A stretch of DNA of 64,000 bases from a phage. Location of the stretch: sequence record PQ374922.1; one strand, given 5' to 3'. Below the pieces are notes generated by a model that did not search any database, had not been told where the DNA came from, and saw nothing but the letters and a program-made list of their open reading frames with translations. The position numbers were made by a program, and so were the translations under genes. Positions 7,850 through 62,794 of the stretch are shown here, one piece after another; positions within the stretch are counted from its first letter, which is position 1; each line of letters opens with the position of its first letter.

Positions 7850-8217
7850 TCTTGATTCACATAGGCGGGGGTGGCCTCGCCTTCATCAGTTACTACACCG
7901 AACAATTTGTCCAGAGAAGCCAGACATTGTGCGTTCAGGTGTTCACTGATCGTATCCTTCAGCATTTGTTCGCTGTTCAATTGGAATGGCAGAACCTTCG
8001 CTTCGATGCCGTTATCAAACGTCACAACGCCAACATACAGACCAACTTTCAGGCCTGTCATCAAGCCAAGGGGGACAAATCGCGGCTCCGATGGTAAGTT
8101 CTTGTCTGACGCCAGCTGTGTCAGATAAACTGGGGTGCCTGTGATAAATTGACCTGTGGTGAGGTTGGCGTCTGGCTTACTACACCCGACTGCGTATAAT
8201 CCTACGAACTGTTTCAT
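7846..8217 (-). CDS. hypothetical small protein, possible lipoprotein
   Basis: Minus-strand ORF with GAGAG RBS; N-terminus MKQFVGLYAVGC resembles a short lipobox; convergent with uvsW. Confidence 0.45.
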   Translation of the reverse strand: MKQFVGLYAVGCSKPDANLTTGQFITGTPVYLTQLASDKNLPSEPRFVPLGLMTGLKVGLYVGVVTFDNGIEAKVLPFQLNSEQMLKDTISEHLNAQCLASLDKLFGVVTDEGEATPAYVNQD

Positions 8218-8380
8218 ATATTACTCTCGTGTGTTGGTTAACATGACATACATATTATTTCGCGTGCATGTTTAGACCAAATAAATTATTTTTGTTGTTG
8301 AATAAAAACTGCTTTCTTGTTGAACAATGGCGTGGTATTATACGAGTTGTGAGCGTTAGCGAACAACGAGTATTTGTTTT

Positions 8381-8400
8381 ATGAGCGAAGCGAATAGGAT
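8381..8400. repeat. 20-mer atgagcgaagcgaataggat (copy 1), preceded by 12-mer tatttgttttat
   Basis: Exact reverse complement present at 53886-53905; 12-mer tatttgttttat also shared (8371-8382 and 53871-53882). Confidence 0.85.
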
Positions 8401-8408
8401 TAATAAAA

Positions 8409-8443
8409 GTTATTATCTTTAATAAGGTTATTATCTTTAATAA
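8409..8443. repeat. tandem direct repeat, 17-bp unit gttattatctttaataa x2
   Basis: Two identical 17-mers separated by 1 nt in the 360-bp intergenic region upstream of the clamp gene. Confidence 0.85.
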
Positions 8444-8449
8444 AGTCCA

Positions 8450-8470
8450 TAAATGCCGAAGGCATTTATT
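8450..8470. repeat. inverted repeat ataaatgcc-gaa-ggcatttat
   Basis: 9-bp perfect stem next to the tandem repeats. Confidence 0.7.
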
Positions 8471-8577
8471 AATAACGCGTAGCGCAATTTGCCACTTGTT
8501 CTATAAGCAAAACACAGCGATACTAGATTTCGTCAAACATGACTTGAACCACCACTATATTTTGAGGATACATACAA

Positions 8578-9246
8578 ATGCAAGAGATCACTCTCTCCGA
8601 ACGTACACTTCAGTTGCTGGCCAACTTTGAGACCATCAACCCATCTATCGTTCTGACACCGGGCAAGATGCTGCGCAGTATTAATGATTCTTCTACTGTG
8701 ATCGCCGTGGCGCAGATCGAAGAAGACTTCCCGTTTGAGTTCCCGATTCTGGACCTGACCAAACTTCTGGCCATCCAGCGCCTACCTTCCTTCAAAGGTG
8801 CCAAAGCCGAATTCCATCAGGACTACATCCTGTTGAAAGGTGAAAGTTCTCAGCTGCAATTCTGGCGTTCTGCTAAAGAACTCACGGTTGTCCCGGCTGA
8901 TACTATCGAACTGCCGTCTGTTGACTTTGAAGCGATCATCACTCCAGAGAAGATGAAAGAACTGACCCGCGCCTGTTCTACCCTCGGACATAAGACTGTG
9001 CGCCTGGTTGCTCAGGGTGGCAAAACTCGCCTGGTTGCAACCACCACTACCCTGGACAACTCCAACAACTACACTGTTGAGCTGGGTGAAACCGCGCTGC
9101 CGGACTTCGTAATGCCGCTGGATGTTGCCAACCTGAAAATGATCGAAGGCAACTACACTCTGCGTGCCTGTGCTGATCTACAGATGGTGAACTTCCAATC
9201 ATCCGACGCGACGATCAATTACTTCGTCGGCGCACAGATTGAGTAA
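8578..9246 (+). CDS. sliding clamp, T4 gp45-like
   Basis: 222 aa, E. coli-optimal codon usage, immediately upstream of clamp-loader ATPase; order 45-44-62-regA as in T4. Confidence 0.8.
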   Translation: MQEITLSERTLQLLANFETINPSIVLTPGKMLRSINDSSTVIAVAQIEEDFPFEFPILDLTKLLAIQRLPSFKGAKAEFHQDYILLKGESSQLQFWRSAKELTVVPADTIELPSVDFEAIITPEKMKELTRACSTLGHKTVRLVAQGGKTRLVATTTTLDNSNNYTVELGETALPDFVMPLDVANLKMIEGNYTLRACADLQMVNFQSSDATINYFVGAQIE

Positions 9247-36318: not shown

Positions 36319-36933
36319 ATGACGATGACAACGTTGAAGGTCATGGCCTTGTCCGTGACCTTTACCATTGCCAGCGGGAATGTGCACGCTTCCCAAAGTA
36401 CCACCCAATGTGTTTATAATTTCTCCGAGCAACAACTTAATACGATGGCAACCGCCTATCACGTGGGCAAGACACAAGATCTTGGCTACACTCTGGCCGC
36501 CATATCTTGGCGTGAGAGCCGCGCTGGCGAAGATGTAGTGTCAATGCGATACGGCCTCAAGGCGGCCAACATGGGAGCCTTTCAGAACAAGGTGAAGACA
36601 GTTGGTGATCGCGAAGGTTGTAAGAATCGCAAGTGCTATGCCAATGTCGCTATAAAGTTGCTGACCGACCAAGAATATGCCGCGCAAGCCGCCCTCGATG
36701 AGATGCAGTTCTGGCTGACCTATCACAATCAGAATATCCGCAAATCCCTCTCCTCTTACAATGCTGGCTTCGCCCGTAATCCTGCATCGAACGCTTATGC
36801 TGCCGACGTCGTGAAGAAAGCTAAATATCTTCAGAAATGTGTGTCCTTCGAAGGCCGGACCATCTCCGAGGTAGATCCTCAGGTGATCGCCATGAACAAG
36901 CACACAATAGAGAAACTGAAGAGGACAAGATAA
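36319..36933 (+). CDS. secreted lytic transglycosylase (SLT domain) with signal peptide
   Basis: Signal peptide MTMTTLKVMALSVTFTIASGNVHA; SLT-like motif AISWRESRAG...MGAFQ. Confidence 0.5.
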   Translation: MTMTTLKVMALSVTFTIASGNVHASQSTTQCVYNFSEQQLNTMATAYHVGKTQDLGYTLAAISWRESRAGEDVVSMRYGLKAANMGAFQNKVKTVGDREGCKNRKCYANVAIKLLTDQEYAAQAALDEMQFWLTYHNQNIRKSLSSYNAGFARNPASNAYAADVVKKAKYLQKCVSFEGRTISEVDPQVIAMNKHTIEKLKRTR

Positions 36934-37571
36934 TGAACATCACTCCATCTCAGGCCGGATATGAACATATCTTGGTCTTCATTGCTCTACAGGGTGCGAA
37001 GGAAGGCATCATCGTATCCGAGTACTCAGGTACGGTTCGCCTTGCTGATTATGTCGCACCGGAGGCATTTATCAAGAAGTGTATTGACGCATGGTGCCTC
37101 TATGCCCTCAGCACATACCCTGCTCCTCCTGAGGGTGAGCTGTTGTTTACTGTGCCGACTCCGGCTGTTGGCGATACAGACGCGATCTTTGCCGATATGC
37201 TGGCCAAGGGGTATTTGGTGTATGACCTCACCCACGATGTCTACTCCTTTACTTCGCTGAACACCGTGTTTGGATTCACCATCACATCTGAAGCCAACAT
37301 CCCTGACTGGGGTATTTTGGCGTGGGGCGTTGACGGTCTGGGTGCAACCTACGCATCGTCTGACGTCGGTGCGGTTCTGATTGATGAGGGTGTCACCATG
37401 GAGCAGTACCTTGCCCAGTTCCCTCAGCACAATATCACAGGCAGCGACATCATTTTGGTCCAGCCTGGCGCTATCGCTCTCCCCCGTTTGGTGGATGGAT
37501 TGAAGCCTCAGCTGAAGGACATCATCGCAGGTATTCGATCCCACATTCCGGTTGTGAATCTGACGCCGTAA
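36933..37571 (+). CDS. hypothetical protein (212 aa)
   Basis: Start overlaps previous stop. Confidence 0.5.
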   Translation: MNITPSQAGYEHILVFIALQGAKEGIIVSEYSGTVRLADYVAPEAFIKKCIDAWCLYALSTYPAPPEGELLFTVPTPAVGDTDAIFADMLAKGYLVYDLTHDVYSFTSLNTVFGFTITSEANIPDWGILAWGVDGLGATYASSDVGAVLIDEGVTMEQYLAQFPQHNITGSDIILVQPGAIALPRLVDGLKPQLKDIIAGIRSHIPVVNLTP

Positions 37572-38014: not shown

Positions 38015-38089
38015 GATAAGGGGGCTGACGCTCCCTTTTGGTTTCGCTAATTAGAAGAAACCGCCGTTAATTCAGTCAGGAGATATAAA

Positions 38090-41008
38090 ATGTCAAAGCT
38101 AAGTTTCCTCCAGTTCATGCAGGAAAGAGATCAGTTGGACGAAGCGTTCAACTCCGCTCCGTATGAGCTGACCATGGGCAAGAAGAACGCAGGCGATGTG
38201 TTCTTCACCTTCATCGACGAAGATGAAAAGGAATACCGTATTCAGTTCTATACCCCTCAGGGGCTGGGTAAGAGTGTTCGTCAGGTTTTCATCGGCCAGA
38301 AGCGCGGCTCCGTCTATCCTGACGCCATCGCTCGCTTCAAGAACCCAATGCGCGTTATCGCTTCCATGATCGAAGCGACCAAACAATTCATGGCGACTCC
38401 TCTGGGCAAGACCATCGATGGCTTTGCTGTCAACTTCTCTAAGAAAGCCCTGGATCGCGGTATGACCCTGATTCCTAAGATCATCCGCCAGTCCGGCCTG
38501 AAGCAGAAACTGAACGTCATGGACCTGACCTACGCGCCTGTTCCTGACCGTGGTTATGTGTGGCTAGTTCGTAAGGGTAAAGATCCGGCTCAGGTATTCG
38601 ACGGTCCGAAGATGCAGGGTATCACCTGGGATGATCCAGACAAAGTCGGTGACGTTCCGGTTCAGAACAATACTCCGGATGTGGGAGTTGGGGCTGGTTC
38701 TTCTGAAATCGAAGTCAACCGCGAGTGGTACAACAGCTCGGACACTGGTCTGGAGTTGAAGAGCGGGCGAGACCCGATTCGTGGAAATTACGTCCGTCTG
38801 ATAAGCGGTTCGAAAGAAGTAGCCACATTCTATGGTTATGATTTTGACAAATATCCAGACGGGACTGAGGTATCTTGGAATATGAAGCGCGGCTTCACCA
38901 ACCAAGACTTGGTCGGTGCGTCCATGACCAAACAGAAGAAAGGTATGTACGATCAGTACACTTTCAAGAAAGGTACTCAGATAATTCTGGTGGTGGACGT
39001 TGACACCAGCAATGACACCAGCAATGACACCAGCAATGGCAACGGATGGAAATTAACTTCAAACGGGGATCAGCCCATGTTGTTATGGGCTGGTAAGGAG
39101 AGAGGCCGCACGAACACGGCAAATATCGCTCCCCACTACAATGAGCCGGGCGTGTATGTTGGCGCATACATGAATGAGAAACCTGTGCGTGGGCAAAGTG
39201 CTGATTTCATTGCTCGTCAGTTGAAATTACCGCAAGTCCCTATCAATATCCTGAATGATTTCACCATGGCGTCTACAAAATTTTGGAAAGGTTCTCAAAA
39301 CAGTTCAGACAGAAATAACCCAGCCAACATTATCGGTTCTGGAACTGCTGTTATTGATGCCAAACGACTTGGTGCTCGAGAAGTAAACGTTGAACGATTC
39401 AAAAACGGTGTTCGCATGCGTTCTCAAAACGGTGACGTCGACATCAGTATTTCTGACCCAGACTTTTCAAATGCAGCAAGTGCGACTGATGCTGCTACTG
39501 CCTCTGTTGTGGTCAAGAACGGGCGTTACGAAGGTGCCATCAATTCAAAGCGCAAGATTGCCCGCACCTCGTACGAGCAGGGTACTGAATGGGATATCAT
39601 CGGTGTCAACGGGGAAACCCTTGTCTCTATCAAGTTGAACAAAGTGTCTAAATCCGCATCGGATTCGACCGAGGGTGCAACCAGTGTTGATCAATTACGT
39701 GACAGTGGTTTCATCGCTCGTGTTCTGGGTATCATTGATACCAACGTTGGGCTGGACACTTCTATTCTTCCTGGTGAAAACATCCGTCGCGTGGGCGCTG
39801 GTCGTTACACGACGGCAGGCGGGTTGGTTATCGTTGTCAACTTCACAAACGTCCTCGCTGGTTTCGTTCAATACTCAGTTTTCAGCGAAATTGCTGAAGA
39901 GGAGAACGTGGCCAAAGGTAGCGCCCGTGACGTCGCCAATGCGGTAATTGCGTCCATCTTTGAGGTTGCCAAGACCCAGTACACTGGGAAATGGGAAATT
40001 AGCGCAGTGCCAACAAGCGCTCCATATCCTATCAAAGCCATTCGCCGTTCTCGGGGCTGGGGTTATGTGGAAACCGCAAACTGGACTCTGACAGTGTCCG
40101 ACGCTGTCCTGAATCGTGTGAAGCCAGGGAAAACTGCCCTACTGGAACTCATCAAAGAACCTCCGCGTGGCAAGCACCCGCTGGAAATCATCCCAGAGAA
40201 GGGCGACAAGACCCTGATGCTGAAAGATCGTATTACCGGGGCCATCTATGGTTCTATCGACCTGAATGCCCAAGGCGCTGATCTGGTCAACTCTGGAACC
40301 CTGAAGATGCCACGCAACGCCATGGTGTTTGGTGAGACTGTCAACGGTATGTCCATTCGGTGGGATGTCAATTTCCCCGAAACGGGAAAATACGCCGGTG
40401 CTTCTATGATAACCAACGTGACCTATTACTACGACAAAGGTAAAGTTGCATTCACCCCAATTGTCTCTCAGAAAGGGCGTACCCTGAACAATCCGAAGAC
40501 ATATGAACTTCCTTTAAACAAAGATATGGTCCAGAGTGTGATTGATGAGATTTCATCAAAAATGGAATATCTTTCCAGAAACCTCCAACAGTTGAAAAGT
40601 CAGTCATACAACCCAAACCAGGTGTTCTTGAACGATATAACCATCACGGATAAAGGTGAAGTGATTTGGAATGATTACAACTTGTCTGACGGCAAAGTTA
40701 CACAAATTATGCTGTCCATGATAAGCGCAGAAAATAAACGTCTAGAGAAAGTGGCAAACAAGCCGGATATCAATATCACATTGCCAAAGAAACAAGCTGA
40801 AGTGATAGAATTTATAAACCGGATGATCGACATTGATCTCACCCCTTATGTGAGAACCCCCAAAAAACGTGATGTGGTATTATTTGACTCTTCTGAATTG
40901 TCGATGAACCAACTCAACAACATAGAACGCCTGGGAAGAGAAACAGGAAAATGGTCTCTTCAGTCAAACGGCGGTATGGGTCATGCACTATTTCTGAATG
41001 TTTGGTGA
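38090..41008 (+). CDS. large hypothetical protein (972 aa) with internal SNDT tandem repeat
   Basis: Uninterrupted 2.9-kb ORF; 12-bp x3 tandem repeat at 39002-39037; 3' ~500 nt markedly AT-richer. Confidence 0.7.
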   Translation: MSKLSFLQFMQERDQLDEAFNSAPYELTMGKKNAGDVFFTFIDEDEKEYRIQFYTPQGLGKSVRQVFIGQKRGSVYPDAIARFKNPMRVIASMIEATKQFMATPLGKTIDGFAVNFSKKALDRGMTLIPKIIRQSGLKQKLNVMDLTYAPVPDRGYVWLVRKGKDPAQVFDGPKMQGITWDDPDKVGDVPVQNNTPDVGVGAGSSEIEVNREWYNSSDTGLELKSGRDPIRGNYVRLISGSKEVATFYGYDFDKYPDGTEVSWNMKRGFTNQDLVGASMTKQKKGMYDQYTFKKGTQIILVVDVDTSNDTSNDTSNGNGWKLTSNGDQPMLLWAGKERGRTNTANIAPHYNEPGVYVGAYMNEKPVRGQSADFIARQLKLPQVPINILNDFTMASTKFWKGSQNSSDRNNPANIIGSGTAVIDAKRLGAREVNVERFKNGVRMRSQNGDVDISISDPDFSNAASATDAATASVVVKNGRYEGAINSKRKIARTSYEQGTEWDIIGVNGETLVSIKLNKVSKSASDSTEGATSVDQLRDSGFIARVLGIIDTNVGLDTSILPGENIRRVGAGRYTTAGGLVIVVNFTNVLAGFVQYSVFSEIAEEENVAKGSARDVANAVIASIFEVAKTQYTGKWEISAVPTSAPYPIKAIRRSRGWGYVETANWTLTVSDAVLNRVKPGKTALLELIKEPPRGKHPLEIIPEKGDKTLMLKDRITGAIYGSIDLNAQGADLVNSGTLKMPRNAMVFGETVNGMSIRWDVNFPETGKYAGASMITNVTYYYDKGKVAFTPIVSQKGRTLNNPKTYELPLNKDMVQSVIDEISSKMEYLSRNLQQLKSQSYNPNQVFLNDITITDKGEVIWNDYNLSDGKVTQIMLSMISAENKRLEKVANKPDINITLPKKQAEVIEFINRMIDIDLTPYVRTPKKRDVVLFDSSELSMNQLNNIERLGRETGKWSLQSNGGMGHALFLNVW
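39002..39037 (+). repeat. in-frame tandem repeat, 12-bp unit gacaccagcaat x3 (encodes DTSN x3)
   Basis: Three perfect copies inside the 972-aa ORF. Confidence 0.9.
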
Positions 41009-41082
41009 AACCAGCTGGACTTGAGAACAGAATAAAGCCCCTCCGGGGGCTAATTACATCTAAATCCCCGAGGAGAGATCCA

Positions 41083-41388
41083 ATGAAACCGTTTATCGAA
41101 TATTTTAAAGAACAAGCCGCTAAACCTCAGACCCATGCTGGTGTCCAGGGTAAGACCGTATCCATCACCAAGCAAGCTGACGGCACTCAGTGGTGTTCCG
41201 GCGCTACCGTGACCCAGATCACTCCTGACAATCAGGCGGATATCTACAACCTGGAGTTAACCAACGGCAACACCATCAAGGTGAAGCTGACCCCAGACCA
41301 GACTCACGGTATCTCCCAAGGTCAGGAAGTCGTTGCTGTCCATGACGGTTTCGAATTCTTCTTTGGCAAGTCTGTCGACAAAGACTAA
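41083..41388 (+). CDS. hypothetical protein (101 aa)
   Basis: GAGGAGAG RBS. Confidence 0.5.
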   Translation: MKPFIEYFKEQAAKPQTHAGVQGKTVSITKQADGTQWCSGATVTQITPDNQADIYNLELTNGNTIKVKLTPDQTHGISQGQEVVAVHDGFEFFFGKSVDKD

Positions 41389-41428
41389 GTGAAACCATCA
41401 AGATGACCCTGGTCAAGCCGTGATTACA

Positions 41429-41460
41429 ATCCCCCTAAATACAGGGGGATTTCTTTTTCT
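41429..41460 (+). terminator. terminator hairpin with TAAATACA loop
   Basis: atccccc-TAAATACA-gggggat followed by ttctttttct. Confidence 0.65.
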
Positions 41461-41883: not shown

Positions 41884-42495
41884 ATGAGCAAAATCTTTAT
41901 CCCGTCACACCGCGAAGGATGTGAAATCGCGGCCAACTACCTGCGCGGTCGCATGAACTGCGGCGCTGTCTTCATCGAGCCAAATTCGTTTGACAACAAA
42001 GAATCACCTGATGCCATCGGGTTCCGTTCCGGCGGTTGCTCTATCCTGATGGAAGTGAAGGTGTCTCGCTCTGATTTCCTTACCGACAAGAAGAAGCCCC
42101 ATCGGATGGACCCCACAACAGGTATGGGCGCATACCGCTTTTATGTCTGCCCTCAGGAAGTAATCAGGGTTGAAGACCTACCACCAAAGTGGGGGTTGTT
42201 CTACTTCACACCCCGCAAGTCCCTGATGCCAGTTCATGTGCCAGACATGCAGTACTCTTCATTGTCATCACCGGAGCATTATCAGAAGTACCTTGATGAA
42301 CAGATCAAGAGAGGAAGAACCGTTACCCGGCATATGCGCAGCTACATGGAACTCCTCGACGGCTTCGCCCACTTTGAGCGCAACATGGCTGGGGAACAGA
42401 ATATCCTGTATGGGGCTTGGCGTCAACTGTGTATAGCTCAAAGTCGTGGTGTAGACTATACTGTGACCGAAGTGTTCCAGAGGCCGAAGATCTAA
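41884..42495 (+). CDS. PD-(D/E)xK nuclease-fold protein
   Basis: Core motif SPDAIGF...ILMEVKVSRSD; AAAGGAAAGGA RBS. Confidence 0.5.
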   Translation: MSKIFIPSHREGCEIAANYLRGRMNCGAVFIEPNSFDNKESPDAIGFRSGGCSILMEVKVSRSDFLTDKKKPHRMDPTTGMGAYRFYVCPQEVIRVEDLPPKWGLFYFTPRKSLMPVHVPDMQYSSLSSPEHYQKYLDEQIKRGRTVTRHMRSYMELLDGFAHFERNMAGEQNILYGAWRQLCIAQSRGVDYTVTEVFQRPKI

Positions 42496-43151
42496 TGAAC
42501 TATCAAAAAATTCATGACGCTATAATAACCAGAGCCAGAGATAGAATTTTAACTGGTTACAAGGAAAAACACCACGTCATCCCTCTATCTCTTGGTGGTG
42601 AAGACAGGAACTACAATAAAGTTTCTCTCACAGCATCTGAACATTATATTATTCATCTTCTGTTGGCCAAAATTCACGGCGGGGTAATGGTCAGCGCATT
42701 TAAAAAGATGCGCCACTTGACCTCTAATCCTCCAAACAATAAAGAGTTTGCCGTCAGGAGGGAATTGTTGTGTACAACAGCCGGGGAGAAAGCGAAAGAT
42801 CCACAAAAACGGAAAAGGCATTCTCTGAAAATGAAGGGTAGAAACCATACAGAATCTGCCAAATTATCAATATCCAATTCCATGACTGGGGAGAATAACC
42901 CAATGAAGGGGATACCTGCATGGAGGAACCCGACCAACATCAGCCGAGGAACTCATAAAAATTGGTTGGCGGCTGGAGAAATTTATGACTTGTACGTCAC
43001 AGGGAAATTTTTAAGAGTTATCGACCTCTTCAATGCTTGCAAATTGCCGACATCATACGGAACGGTTTCCACCATAAAAACAAAATTGGAATTGGGTTGG
43101 GAGCCAAGGAAAGACGCGGATTGGTTGCAATTCTATGAGGAACACAAATGA
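42495..43151 (+). CDS. HNH homing endonuclease
   Basis: HNH motif KEKHHVIPLSLGGEDRNYNKVSLTASEHYIIH; AT-rich codon usage unlike neighbours. Confidence 0.75.
   Translation: MNYQKIHDAIITRARDRILTGYKEKHHVIPLSLGGEDRNYNKVSLTASEHYIIHLLLAKIHGGVMVSAFKKMRHLTSNPPNNKEFAVRRELLCTTAGEKAKDPQKRKRHSLKMKGRNHTESAKLSISNSMTGENNPMKGIPAWRNPTNISRGTHKNWLAAGEIYDLYVTGKFLRVIDLFNACKLPTSYGTVSTIKTKLELGWEPRKDADWLQFYEEHK
42495..43151 (+). mobile_element. free-standing homing endonuclease gene insertion
   Basis: Compositionally distinct HNH gene wedged between nuclease gene and primase with overlapping start/stop codons. Confidence 0.5.
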
Positions 43152-53819: not shown

Positions 53820-53885
53820 CGCAGCTGTTTTTGCCTTATATACTATAGGAAGCTCTGCTTCCGTTCATTTTATTTGTTTTATTCG

Positions 53886-53905
53886 ATCCTATTCGCTTCG
53901 CTCAT
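53886..53905. repeat. 20-mer copy 2 (inverted orientation)
   Basis: atcctattcgcttcgctcat is the reverse complement of 8381-8400. Confidence 0.85.
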
Positions 53906-54112
53906 CAAACCGCCCTATGCGGGCAGCACCATTCCAATGCCATGGAGGCATAAGGGCGAGGCAATAACTGTACACCCCAGAACACTCCTTGAAAAATGGT
54001 ATTTTACTGACAATCTGATTCAAAACAGACAAACACCAACAAATGACTCGGGAACAAGCCCATTATAGCAATTTCAGGTAAAGAGAGTGCGTGTTAACCG
54101 ATTTTACAGTTA

Positions 54113-54141
54113 AGCCAATAAAAATCCCGCCGAAGCGGGAT
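54113..54141 (-). terminator. rho-independent terminator for minus-strand gene 54290-55096
   Basis: atcccgc-cgaa-gcgggat with A-run on + strand (T-run on - strand). Confidence 0.6.
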
Positions 54142-54289
54142 TACTGTTTCTTAGACAACCTGACCTTGAGGGCTTCGGTTAACAAGTCAAGATGCCATGG
54201 CATCGACTCGTTGATTTCAAATATGCTATAGCCGTGTAACTTCAATTCATCACACATCACGAAGTAGGATAATAAATCAGTTTCAAACA

Positions 54290-55096
54290 TTAAATGAAAA
54301 TTTCATTAATACTATTGAATTCGATTTTGTGCTCCTTACCACATTTCGGACACTTGATCGAACTCTTGTAGTGGATGCGCGGTATTTTGTGGAAGAAGTT
54401 CTTCGTAATGCTGTCAATAACATCTGATTCGATGTTATCCTTCACCCACTCAACAAACGCTTCTTTCACACGGCGGCGCTCAGTAGCCTCTTCCGGAGTG
54501 ATTCCGATTTCTTCAGGATTCTCAACCTTCCACACCTGACCGTCATCATCGTACAGACAGTCGATAAAGGTGGCCAGCATCATCTCAACGCTTGCAGCAT
54601 CAGACAGTGCCGTAGCGTCCGAGAAGGAAGGTTGGCGCATCTTGAGGTGATATCCACCTGGCAGGTCAAACGTCTCCCGGAAGCCGTCCTGAGCAATGCA
54701 TTTGACGTTGTTCAACGGGATAGGTAGAGTCAGTTCCTGCTCACAGGGAGCTATCTGGTGCTTTTCTTGACCATCTCCCAGATCGATCGTTTCTTCAATC
54801 TGATTATTGCACTTATAGCGAATCTTCATCAATTCACCGATGGAGATCATGCGCATGCGGATGAACACTTCCTCAACAACGCCGATTGGCAGTTTACTGA
54901 AAGGTGCACCTGCATTTACACATTCGCTAAAGAGACTCTCCATCATGGCTGCGCGTTCTTCAATCGGCGTTTGCGGATCTGACACCTGAAGTAACAAAGT
55001 TTGTTGCCCCGCAGTAAAGGCGCGATATTTGATCACAGTAGGCCAAAAGTCGCTTTTATATGTCTTTTCTGTTCTGGGCAATGATGGTAAATTCAT
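54290..55096 (-). CDS. hypothetical protein with C-terminal zinc ribbon, possibly baseplate-associated
   Basis: GGAGATACATT-ATG RBS; CPKCGKEHK; AT-rich codon usage; followed by minus-strand terminator. Confidence 0.5.
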   Translation of the reverse strand: MNLPSLPRTEKTYKSDFWPTVIKYRAFTAGQQTLLLQVSDPQTPIEERAAMMESLFSECVNAGAPFSKLPIGVVEEVFIRMRMISIGELMKIRYKCNNQIEETIDLGDGQEKHQIAPCEQELTLPIPLNNVKCIAQDGFRETFDLPGGYHLKMRQPSFSDATALSDAASVEMMLATFIDCLYDDDGQVWKVENPEEIGITPEEATERRRVKEAFVEWVKDNIESDVIDSITKNFFHKIPRIHYKSSIKCPKCGKEHKIEFNSINEIFI

Positions 55097-55145
55097 AATG
55101 TATCTCCACGGTATATTGTAAGAGTAATTATAACGAGGAATGAAA

Positions 55146-55670
55146 ATGCGCGGATTTTGTTTTAGTGAAATAGGCAAAGAACTGTCTATACAATATCCCG
55201 ATCCCAACACAGACTTCTTTATCTTCCTGACCGATTATGCCAAGAAAGAGAATATCCTCCATGTGGCAATGAAACACGAAGATTATAAGTTCTGTCGGCT
55301 GGGTGTCAAAGACCTGCTGCGTTATGGTCTACAAGTGGTCATCGTAGACCCATACTACAGCCCTATCGACGATGAAGAAGTTCTACCCGTGTATGTTCAC
55401 CGCAACATCAATACATTGGACAAGCATTATCCAGATTGTATTGTCATCGGCGAACTCATCTCGTATTATCATCGTGTGCGAAAGCTGGAACAGATTAAAA
55501 GTTATTTTCAAGAGGGTGTTGGTCAATATAAGATGAATGCCCTTAGTAGTGGATGGATGGTGCTGTCTTCAGCAGGCAGTGCTGACTATATTAAGATGCG
55601 TGTCTACCAATACGTTGTGGAGCGCGATTATGAACTGGAGAAAAGTAATGCAAAACGAAAAACCCGTTGA
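55146..55670 (+). CDS. hypothetical protein (174 aa)
   Basis: Second ATG chosen for RBS spacing; AT-rich. Confidence 0.45.
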   Translation: MRGFCFSEIGKELSIQYPDPNTDFFIFLTDYAKKENILHVAMKHEDYKFCRLGVKDLLRYGLQVVIVDPYYSPIDDEEVLPVYVHRNINTLDKHYPDCIVIGELISYYHRVRKLEQIKSYFQEGVGQYKMNALSSGWMVLSSAGSADYIKMRVYQYVVERDYELEKSNAKRKTR

Positions 55671-61492: not shown

Positions 61493-61768
61493 ATGAAACG
61501 TTATCTGAAGCTGACGACTGTCCTTGAGTCGATCATAGAGTATTTCATCATGCAACACCTCCGCGCTGACAACATGCATTTAGACGGTTGCCTGACGTAT
61601 GACCACAAGATCATTGTCCATTCTGTTGAAGTGGTGGATGATGATCTGATGATTGCAAATGTAGAACACTGTCTGTTTGATGAGTCGGTTGATGCGTACT
61701 GCCAACCACGGTTCGCAAAAGTCGAGCTAACAAATTGTTGGCCGCCGGAAATGGTTTTTCTATATTGA
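61493..61768 (+). CDS. hypothetical protein (91 aa)
   Basis: GAGAGG RBS. Confidence 0.45.
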   Translation: MKRYLKLTTVLESIIEYFIMQHLRADNMHLDGCLTYDHKIIVHSVEVVDDDLMIANVEHCLFDESVDAYCQPRFAKVELTNCWPPEMVFLY

Positions 61769-61860
61769 CGTAGAAAGTTAATATTCACGCAAGTTCGCGC
61801 TCCGCTTGGTCGCGCACCTTATAACACTAAGGTGTTAACTTTCTTTTCAATAAAAAGTAG

Positions 61861-61889
61861 TTTACATCTATGAAAATGCAGTATATTAT
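61861..61889 (+). promoter_or_regulatory. sigma70-like early promoter TTTACA-N17-TATTAT
   Basis: Near-consensus hexamers with 17-nt spacer, AT-rich upstream including TTCAATAA, ~70 nt before gene 61958. Confidence 0.5.
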
Positions 61890-61957
61890 GTTCTCACTAC
61901 ACAGTCAGAACAACAATATGCCGCGGATACGGTCTTAATAACGAAAGGGTTTTTATT

Positions 61958-62794
61958 ATGTCATATATTCTTCATGTGGATTCTGGAACCAAAATTGAAA
62001 TTGAAGGCAAAGACGTTGCGGCTATCCAGGCTGAAATCAAAGAAGCAGGTCTGATCATCGGAAACGTTACCCTGCGCCGTATGGTTGAAGGTGTTCTTCA
62101 GGCTGCCAACGGCTTCGAACTGATTGAAGGTCTGAGCGCTGAAGAGAAGGAAGAAACTCAGCAGGCTCTGGCGCAAGCCCAAGAGCAAGCCCAAGCTGAA
62201 GTATCGCTGAAAGTCGCTGAAACTATTGATGCTGAAGCACCGATCTCTGCCGATGCATGTGAAGCCCCAGTGTCCGACGCCCCGGTAGACGCGGTTGAAG
62301 ATGCAGTCAACGCGGCGCTGGAAGAAGGTAATCAGCCGTCCGACGCGAAAATCGGTTCCTTGGCGTCTTCTATGCTGAAAGAAGCATCGAAGGGTAAGAC
62401 CCTGACCCCGCAGGCAGCGCTGGTAGAGCGTAAACGCCGTCACACCAAACGTGAGGAAATGGTTGACTTGGCTCGCGCTTCTAATCACGGTCCGGTCTTG
62501 GCGGCGATTGAAGCTGGTGTTGTCCCCGGCGTGTTCCTGAGCTACGTGAACCCAGACATGCGTTGGTTCCAGTTCCCGGTCACCGAACTGGCTAACCCTG
62601 AAAACCTTCACGCTCGCACCAATACGTATGTCGACGTTGCGCCTATCGTTTCCGGTGGCTGGGGCTTCAGTCTGTACGTGAACGGCAAGTCCTTCACCAA
62701 ACGTCAGAAGATCAAAGAGTCTGATGCTGAGTCTCTGGTTAAGGCGATCAATGAATGGCTTCCACAGGCTCTGGCTGAAGCGAAAGCTGTGTAA
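61958..62794 (+). CDS. hypothetical acidic protein (278 aa), probable early gene
   Basis: Sigma70-like promoter TTTACA-N17-TATTAT ~70 nt upstream; optimal codons; Glu/Ala/Gln-rich central region. Confidence 0.6.
   Translation: MSYILHVDSGTKIEIEGKDVAAIQAEIKEAGLIIGNVTLRRMVEGVLQAANGFELIEGLSAEEKEETQQALAQAQEQAQAEVSLKVAETIDAEAPISADACEAPVSDAPVDAVEDAVNAALEEGNQPSDAKIGSLASSMLKEASKGKTLTPQAALVERKRRHTKREEMVDLARASNHGPVLAAIEAGVVPGVFLSYVNPDMRWFQFPVTELANPENLHARTNTYVDVAPIVSGGWGFSLYVNGKSFTKRQKIKESDAESLVKAINEWLPQALAEAKAV

Follow-up and report, generated by a model that had tools for sequence, protein, structure and literature searches.

In a 64-kb stretch of phage DNA (sequence record PQ374922.1, hereafter the window), the open reading frame (ORF) at 38090-41008 encodes a modular protein of 972 amino acids (aa) that is a virion component, as shown for its homologues in phages LIMEstone1 and Sajous1, and that is probably a protease-processed, capsid-packaged and injected cargo protein of the Alt/internal-protein class. 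The ORF lies on the plus strand, starts with ATG and encodes a polypeptide of 107.7 kDa with an isoelectric point (pI) of 9.0; the ORF listing agreed with an earlier reading made from the letters alone (the sequence-only reading) that it is the longest ORF in the window. The window belongs to an Ackermannviridae phage of the Aglimvirinae with 99.9% identity to Escherichia phage YX22, in which the gene is 99.9% identical to that of a 'hypothetical protein'; parts of it matched 180 Ackermannviridae genomes, where it is labelled 'hypothetical' in almost all and once as a tail completion protein. It is set in a replication/recombination block, distant from the tail and tailspike genes, in the order late sigma factor, gp47/gp46, a 'RegB'-annotated gene, small ORFs, the 972-aa gene, two to three small genes, HNH endonuclease and primase. 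A Pfam search with the whole protein identified no family at E<=1, in line with the sequence-only reading, which had seen no recognisable enzymatic motif, and searches of the PDB by sequence and by profile gave nothing usable. A scan for sigma-70 promoters and terminators around the gene was uninformative except for hairpins at 38018-38037 and 41036-41051. The features of the gene are listed below, the arrow marking the putative site of cleavage.

38090-41008, plus strand: whole gene, modular virion protein of 972 aa in the order leader-N-A-B-C-D-E-F (homology blocks; homologues in virions).
38090-38143, plus strand: putative leader/propeptide, aa 1-18, MSKLSFLQFMQERDQLDE, ending L-D-E↓A; resembles the T4 capsid-targeting sequence (CTS) and carries a gp21-type motif from which cleavage is predicted.
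38144-38674, plus strand: N-domain, an Alt-N-like 'handle', aa 19-195, found in 116/120 close homologues (profile and fold match to Alt).
38689-39039, plus strand: optional cassette A, an all-beta module plus Ser/Asp/Asn-rich linker, aa ~201-317, missing in AV101-type alleles (blastn gap, model).
39002-39037, plus strand: perfect in-frame tandem repeat of 12 bp x3, encoding DTSN x3, at the right edge of cassette A.
39041-39295, plus strand: core module B, aa 318-402, in 110/120 homologues (homology blocks, model).
39332-39643, plus strand: optional module C, aa 415-518, in 56/120 homologues (homology blocks, model).
39659-40753, plus strand: modules D and E, conserved alpha/beta core and best-predicted part, aa 524-888 (homology blocks, model).
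40568-41033, plus strand: AT-rich 3' replacement cassette with a divergent end of E plus F, without domain T (megablast, blastn, GC 0.40).
40775-41005, plus strand: module F, aa 896-972, homologous to the mature portion of a small internal head protein that T-even phages encode at the ipI locus (PHROG, tblastn).
41036-41051, no strand assigned: GC-rich hairpin just past the stop codon, at the right edge of the 3' cassette (terminator scan).

Association with the virion is based on published proteomics of two homologues. In LIMEstone1 the homologue is one gene split by a frameshift into ORF82, the N-terminal half, and ORF81; these gave 4 and 23 unique peptides, respectively, with 55% coverage of ORF81, next to 18 for the major capsid protein and 27 for the tail sheath (PMC3296691 Table 2). 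In this homologue (L004 6001-7597) the final ~60 residues of ORF082 resemble a translation out of frame and both halves gave virion peptides; a single gene was probably split by an error in sequencing or by a recent frameshift. Sajous1 gp214, a homologue by synteny and blastp (86% identity in the N-domain, 62% in module B and 35% in D/E), gave 196 spectra in CsCl-purified virions and was among the top five proteins (PMC10892097 Table 6), with 32, 20 and 10 spectra for its neighbours gp215, gp216 and gp217 (PMC10892097). Five genes of this stretch in LIMEstone1 were reported as 'confirmed structural proteins', and the cluster of virion proteins ORF78-ORF85 was noted there without functional prediction (PMC3296691).

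The N-domain relates the protein to Alt. Searching 1.8 billion representative proteins gave 93 matches, 78 after fragments and matches to module F only were dropped; most of the 93 share only aa ~5-200 with the query. This region is always N-terminal in them, while their lengths range over 306-1439 aa and their tails are unrelated. A hidden Markov model (HMM) of the N-domain matched the N-termini of T2 Alt, Alt.2 and Melville Alt in hmmsearch (conditional E 2.5e-6 to 1e-4), the pairing of Alt aa ~87-200 with N-domain positions 84-193 being constant, and hhalign against an alignment of 20 Alt N-terminal sequences gave P 1.8e-4 over 157 collinear columns. Foldseek against BFVD matched the model to six Alt-annotated proteins (HY03, phiAS5, SP18, Henu6, Melville and 50AhydR13PP) with probability 1.0 and E 5e-5 to 7e-4; ParB/Srx- and deaminase-annotated phage proteins were listed too. 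The order of secondary structure elements agrees with Alt from the third strand on, as judged from an AlphaFold model of Alt that is poor (mean predicted local distance difference test, pLDDT, 39) and usable for element order only. Taken together, the profile and fold comparisons argue with moderate strength for homology of the N-domain to the N-terminal domain of Alt (PF26846). Pfam gave no family for the N-domain; the copy used for the scans did not contain PF26846. No MuF or portal head-association domain was matched by Pfam in the query or in 60 distant members.

Some members of the family carry the catalytic domain of Alt. Five distant members (P0184, P0183, P0185, P0189 and P0208) combine the N-domain with an Alt/VIP2-type ADP-ribosyltransferase (ART) domain (PF03496) near the C-terminus, a domain absent from the query (no Pfam match at E<=1) and from its close homologues. 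N-domain genes often stand as tandem pairs with different C-terminal parts: P0184, with its ART domain, and paralogue P0179 (L012 616-3968) beside gp23, a gp22-type scaffold and Peptidase_S77; the paralogues P0145 and P0148 (L014 6483-11600) near gp47/gp46; and alt and alt.2 of T2 (L005 1265-5419). This arrangement suggests duplication followed by replacement of the cargo. Another member, P0170, is encoded shortly downstream of DNA ligase, from which a single small ORF separates it, near the place of alt in T2.

A putative protease site precedes the N-domain. After a leader of 4-45 residues, 76 of the 78 members share the motif [L/I]-x-E-[A/S]-[F/L/M]-[N/D]-x-x-P-Y, with Leu or Ile at P3 in 69, and [L/I]-x-E↓ is the consensus of the T4 prohead protease gp21 (PMC9026906). 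The leader of the query ends L16-D17-E18↓A19, so that a gp21-type site appears to be present near the N-terminus, and hhalign sets I4-T5-E6↓L7-F8-D9 of Alt on L16-D17-E18↓A19-F20-N21 of the query. It is here that Alt loses its short N-terminal propeptide, which comprises 7 residues (PMC9026906); a cut after I-T-E would leave 6, the exact bond not being seen in that source. The start of the large ORF, MSKLSFLQFMQE, fits the pattern K-x-[FY]-x-[EQ]-F-[IM]-x-E if a single additional residue is allowed, the T-even type being MKTYQEFIAE. In a six-frame scan of the 64-kb window such CTS-like starts were found only in the large ORF and in the neighbouring ORF at 41083, with a pattern that was written after both had been seen.

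Behind the N-domain the protein consists of modules, which were delimited by comparing it, with blastp and phmmer, to 120 close homologues 541-1208 aa long. The homology blocks and their presence among the 120 were N (aa 1-200) in 116, A (201-305) in 25, B (317-417) in 110, C (418-520) in 56, D (521-730) in 111, E (731-890) in 117 and F (891-972) in 42. When a domain T and an alternative module A' were added to the scan, 121 proteins showed 39 distinct module orders with the N-domain fixed in position; the commonest were N-B-C-D-E-T (28 proteins) and N-B-D-E-T (23), and the order in the window, N-A-B-C-D-E-F, occurred in 5. Domain T (127 aa), C-terminal in most relatives, was not found in the window; it shows no more than weak similarity to a portion of module E (tblastn E 0.012; hhalign P 0.0011). 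A fusion or frameshift with the overlapping downstream ORF at 40951-41388 was ruled out, the 127-aa extension of the relatives being domain T, which does not match that ORF.

The AlphaFold model of the 972-aa protein had a mean pLDDT of 72, reaching ~90 for aa 570-880, and its low-confidence stretches fell exactly at the block borders (aa 173-221, 303-317, 402-414, 491-498, 520-523 and 889-895), so that the linkers between modules are predicted to be disordered. No internal sequence repeats were found, nor any Hoc-like tandem Ig-like, BIG or PKD domains by Pfam; the Ig-like (immunoglobulin-like) signal was confined to one weak PDB sequence match (E 0.015), and modules A and C are beta-rich. 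Modules B to E had no recognisable relatives in Pfam, PDB profile or Foldseek searches against the PDB; for D/E there was no convincing match to solved structures, and Foldseek gave weak ChuS/HemS-type matches only (E 5e-4, probability 0.5, template modelling score ~0.13).

Tandem Repeats Finder identified a 12-bp unit repeated 3.2 times with 100% matches at 39001-39038, as expected from the sequence-only reading, which had pointed to three perfect in-frame copies; GACACCAGCAAT x3 at 39002-39037 encodes DTSN x3 (aa 305-316). This array is not a chance feature, because only one other tandem array in the 64 kb scores at least 50; that array, 18 bp x2.6 (TTAATAAAGTTATTATCT), is located at 8400-8446. 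In relatives that bear module A the number of DTSN units is 1, 2 or 3, or DTSN and DTSSN are mixed, and aa 303-317 form a linker with pLDDT<50 between two folded modules. The repeat, taken earlier for a slippage-prone linker, is thus a length-polymorphic linker, disordered according to the model, at the right edge of cassette A. Module A has an all-beta secondary structure in the model (aa 221-302). AV101, the closest Aglimvirinae relative with the usual 3' allele, lacks 38689-39039 of the window (blastn gap), its junction reading ...PDVGV-SSSVDNSN-GWKL.

The 3' end of the gene is compositionally distinct. GC content was 0.36-0.40 across 40490-40940, the last ~500 nt, compared with 0.44-0.56 elsewhere in the gene, and 0.403 for 40568-41033 in comparison with a window mean of 0.493 (s.d. 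0.033, 466-bp windows), only 1.2% of windows being as low. The sequence-only reading had seen an AT-richer end with different codon usage; the end does form the most pronounced compositional break, yet others exist, since the GC content at third codon positions is uneven throughout the gene (0.66-0.74 for codons 1-150, 0.30-0.58 mid-gene and 0.30-0.48 for the end). Other stretches of the window among the AT-richest (466-bp GC <=0.41) are 7981-8767, which includes the 18-bp repeat, 53841-54527, 54981-55557 and 61501-62087.

Comparison with AV101 showed 94-97% identity up to 40638 and 92.5% from 41033, with no alignment between. The left edge of the cassette lies between 40568 (megablast alignments end at 40567) and 40638 (blastn); the right edge is sharp at 41033 and coincides with the hairpin at 41036-41051. 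The alternative 3' allele of AV101 has a GC content of 0.54. The allele of the window recurs at 88-94% identity in scattered Kuttervirus phages (maane, SKML-39, SW16-7, allotria and others) and is present also in Shigella phage ChubbyThor and one Yersinia phage; maane is 93.6% identical to the window at 40328-41392, with flanks at only 81%. Sharing of the allele amid such flanks, together with the gap in the AV101 alignment, indicates at the sequence level that the AT-rich 3' end is the product of a recombinational cassette exchange between subfamilies, which bears out the swapped C-terminal module proposed earlier. Encoded in the cassette are a divergent tail of module E and module F, without the terminal domain T usual in relatives. 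The endings E-T, E-F and E-F-T all exist among relatives; F is therefore an insertion, and T was lost in the lineage of the window. The sequence-only reading had expected variation of this kind, and neither uniform composition nor a fixed repeat number was found among relatives; the protein is a virion component, but its architecture is highly variable.

The same reading had noted a like AT-rich composition in an HNH gene that lies 1.5 kb further downstream. This gene for a homing endonuclease (42495-43151; phrog_655, E 8e-54) is indeed AT-rich (GC 0.417), but it does not go together with the cassette: a full HNH gene stands without the cassette in LIMEstone1, and maane and allotria have the cassette with only a 165-nt HNH remnant. 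Because of this, no mechanistic link between the HNH gene and the cassette is shown, and HNH co-conversion was ruled out as the cause of the AT-rich end, the two distributions differing across phages. The full-length gene in the window, a homologue of LIMEstone1 F-LimV, sits just upstream of the primase gene, as does the 165-nt remnant at the HNH site of Kuttervirus relatives.

Module F ties the C-terminus to internal head proteins. It matched phrog_7673, 'internal head protein', with E 9e-11 and 4e-12, and the 90-aa ipI-locus proteins of Pu-Krd-SF6 and IME340 with 37-40% identity (tblastn); the gene in Pu-Krd-SF6 follows genes 2, 3, 1, 57A and 57B and precedes the tRNA cluster. The T-even protein, MKTYQEFIAE↓AAFNEK...IDDINYLYDIDLTDYV..., consists of a canonical CTS followed by a domain that aligns to aa ~896-969 of the query. 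Module F by itself is 8.9 kDa; the whole protein, at 107.7 kDa, exceeds the 8-20 kDa of internal proteins. Stand-alone homologues of module F without a CTS, 74-88 aa in length (one form 77 aa), occur in other phages, one of them among early/recombination genes (helix-turn-helix (HTH), YqaJ, RecT) on AT-rich phage contigs, an early-gene setting in which anti-defence genes frequently occur. At that locus (L009 7242-7562) the neighbours are YqaJ, RecT, an HTH protein and 'Lockin' (PF26760).

We infer packaging inside the head, cleavage and ejection, as well as a target and a host-takeover or counter-defence role, along the lines known for T4, in which the protein is brought to the prohead core by a leader and handle, its leader is trimmed off by the protease, and it stays and later leaves with the DNA (PMC9026906, PMC3012670). 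The leader and the Alt-N-like domain (aa 19-195) would carry the protein into a T4-type prohead core, where the prohead protease would cut after L16-D17-E18 to give a mature N-terminus at Ala19 (peptide AFNSAPYELTMGK). The mature protein of ~105 kDa would stay in the DNA-filled head as folded modules on Ser/Asp/Asn-rich disordered linkers, a beads-on-a-string build that would suit passage through the tail. On infection it would exit via the tail with the DNA and act in the cell before phage gene expression. The modules behind the handle would be interchangeable cargo, gained, lost and reordered by recombination in or near the linkers, with the DTSN linker changing in length by slippage; the 3' exchange would have brought in F, which T-even phages package separately, and removed T. 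The turnover of modules and the cargo of distant relatives suggest a role in host takeover or counter-defence. Modification-dependent nucleases are a plausible class of target because Ackermannviridae DNA carries 5-NeOmdU (bioRxiv 10.64898/2026.05.19.726188).

Several observations weigh against an injected cargo protein of the Alt/internal-protein class. Whole-virion proteomics cannot separate head from tail, and the only published functional label for a homologue is 'tail completion protein', given to gp214 within a proposed tail 'ferrojan horse' iron-uptake operon from weak Phyre hits (PMC10892097). Similarity between the N-domain and Alt is moderate, hhalign giving a probability of only 49%; the reciprocal search with an Alt-N HMM found nothing significant and PF26846 (Alt-N) is absent from the precomputed Pfam annotation of the homologues. 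No recognisable activity was found in any of the cargo modules, no T4 late promoter consensus (TATAAATA) lies directly upstream of the gene, and a 105-kDa protein with a well-packed D/E unit of 370 residues would have to unfold or thread through the tail tube. An alternative reading is an external tail, neck or baseplate component ('tail completion'), in which beta modules and flexible linkers would contact the host surface and shuffling would adapt the host range, as it does in tail fibres. In its favour, whole virions contain the homologues in abundance (PMC3296691, PMC10892097), the homologue in FrontPhageNews is annotated 'putative tail completion protein', beta structure is rich in modules A and C, where one weak Ig-like match (E 0.015) was also seen, and cassette shuffling is typical of receptor-binding proteins. 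We nevertheless regard a tail role as very unlikely: the gene is encoded in the replication/recombination block, far from tail and tailspike genes, the N-domain is shared with Alt-type packaged enzymes and with ART proteins encoded beside gp21, gp22 and gp23, and the C-terminal domain matches an internal head protein. A conserved prohead-protease motif would serve nothing in a tail protein, no tail family was matched in the 972-aa protein by Pfam or PHROG, and the 'tail completion' label is without homology support, the true gp3/gp15-type proteins being annotated elsewhere (PMC3296691 Table 2, ORF127).

It is also unlikely that the protein is packaged in the head through its Alt-N-like domain but not injected, as a core or scaffold remnant or a DNA-organising protein like T4 IPIII with mostly neutral variation. 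Its abundance in virions and mildly basic character (pI 9.0) would fit such a role, as would the effect of T4 IPIII on head assembly (PMC9026906), the lack of a module with a recognisable catalytic domain and the retention of D and E in nearly all relatives; yet neutral drift explains poorly 39 architectures in syntenic genomes that are 80-97% identical, and the occurrence of a free module F amid the early/recombination genes in unrelated phages speaks for an intracellular role. Moreover, distant members carry ART domains and Foldseek lists deaminase- and ParB/Srx-annotated proteins, typical domains of injected effectors (PMC9503650). For the AT-rich 3' end, an origin as a by-product of homing endonuclease co-conversion or of relaxed selection on a decaying C-terminus appears highly improbable. 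The AT-rich HNH gene 1.5 kb downstream (GC 0.417), the loss of the usual terminal domain T from the allele of the window, the truncation of the next gene and the deletion of another could be read in this way, but cassette and HNH gene do not co-occur across phages and the cassette ends 1.4 kb before the HNH gene, with conserved sequence of 92-97% identity between them. Module F is, furthermore, intact and well conserved, has T-even and free-gene homologues and occurs in 42/120 relatives, with and without T. An injected cargo protein of the Alt/internal-protein class is the reading that we favour.

Genes around the 972-aa gene encode further homologues of virion proteins.

36933-37571, plus strand: gene for 212 aa, homologue of LIMEstone1 ORF85, a confirmed virion protein; same virion-protein cluster, outside the main structural block.
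41083-41388, plus strand: gene for 101 aa starting MKPFIEYFKEQ↓AAKP, a truncated form of the 189-aa LIMEstone1 ORF80/Sajous1 gp215 (phrog_4048 positions 1-100 of 189; homologue found in virions by mass spectrometry, PMC3296691, PMC10892097).
41473-41826, plus strand: gene for 117 aa, Dps/ferritin-like (phrog_858 'starvation-inducible transcriptional regulator', MobD.6); homologues LIMEstone1 ORF78 and Sajous1 gp217 in virions.

The start of the 41083 neighbour is close to the T-even internal-protein leader MKTFKEFINE↓AAAPK. Relatives have an extra 79-aa CTS-like gene (ORF079/gp216) starting MKGF[QKP]DFL..E↓A, which is lost in the window: relative to AV101, maane and LIMEstone1, ~320-480 bp are deleted at the 41389-41430 junction, which removes the C-terminal half of the ORF80/gp215-type protein and the whole 79-aa gene and leaves the 101-aa ORF. 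The late promoter consensus is found upstream of the ORF80/gp215-type gene in LIMEstone1, and not in the window. The Dps/ferritin-like protein is without a CTS-like start. Between the virion cluster and the HNH gene, an ORF of 203 aa at 41884-42495 (phrog_631, unknown function, with a weak 'DNA repair protein' PHROG match) is kept in all relatives examined. Upstream, the 204-aa gene at 36319-36933 is labelled 'RegB' or 'RNA endonuclease' in relatives and has a signal-peptide-like start, MTMTTLKVMALSVTFTIASGNVHA; AV101 calls the matching position 'Vs.1', its PHROG is of unknown function, and the RegB label looks doubtful.

The protein ranks with the most abundant ones in virions of the Ackermannviridae, a family in wide use for phage therapy and biocontrol, and the combination of Alt-like domain, protease site and internal-protein domain makes it a candidate, open to testing, for a protein injected to take over the host or to counter its defences. 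The shuffled locus differs between near-identical therapeutic phages and could affect which defence-carrying strains each infects, and Alt's N-terminal domain could be a natural handle for large foreign cargo in phage heads. Going further, we tentatively propose, as a possibility on which we would not yet rely, that the Alt N-domain is a general handle with which the Ackermannviridae and many T4-like phages load interchangeable cargo into capsids, that in the Ackermannviridae this cargo has become a train of small modules swapped one cassette at a time, a pre-packaged counter-defence arsenal comparable to the T-even ipI locus but borne by one polypeptide, and that module F with its free-standing homologues is a widespread small anti-defence domain, delivered either through early expression or through injection.

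The concept is known from T4; an Alt-like handle with shuffled cargo in an abundant virion protein of the Ackermannviridae was not found described in the literature searched. Alt of T4 and T2 (gpalt; PF26846 plus PF03496), a head-packaged and injected ADP-ribosyltransferase, is likewise large, of a non-essential type and virion-carried. The two share a similar N-terminal profile and fold right after a short leader ending L/I-x-E; they are encoded outside the head gene block and have tandem paralogues, as in alt/alt.2, with one member just past DNA ligase; and some family members bear the same ART domain. In contrast to Alt, the 972-aa protein has no ART or other recognised catalytic domain and carries behind the handle a chain of six modules, shuffled in relatives, and its homologues appear much more abundant in spectra and peptides than the 40 copies of Alt per head, although these measures are not strictly comparable.

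IPI, IPII and IPIII, which are internal proteins of T-even phages, are CTS-targeted, gp21-processed and injected, and it is to a 90-aa protein of the ipI locus that module F is homologous. IPI* blocks GmrS/GmrD. Near-canonical CTS begin the neighbour gene in the window and ORF079 of relatives, and the locus is hypervariable between close relatives, as is the ipI locus (PMC3012670). Unlike in T-even phages, the IP-type domain is fused here to the C-terminus of a 100-kDa carrier and lacks its own 10-residue CTS; the leader of the carrier has 18 residues and is only loosely CTS-like. Polyvalent and MuF-fused head effectors, as summarized from Iyer et al. 2017 in PMC9503650, combine an N-terminal head-association domain with variable C-terminal domains and are predicted to be injected. 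On that summary, the conserved N-terminal head-association domain and exchangeable C-terminal parts are common to both designs, whereas the handle of the 972-aa protein is Alt-N-like rather than MuF or portal, its cargo consists mostly of small domains of no recognised function and its shuffling takes place among very close relatives.

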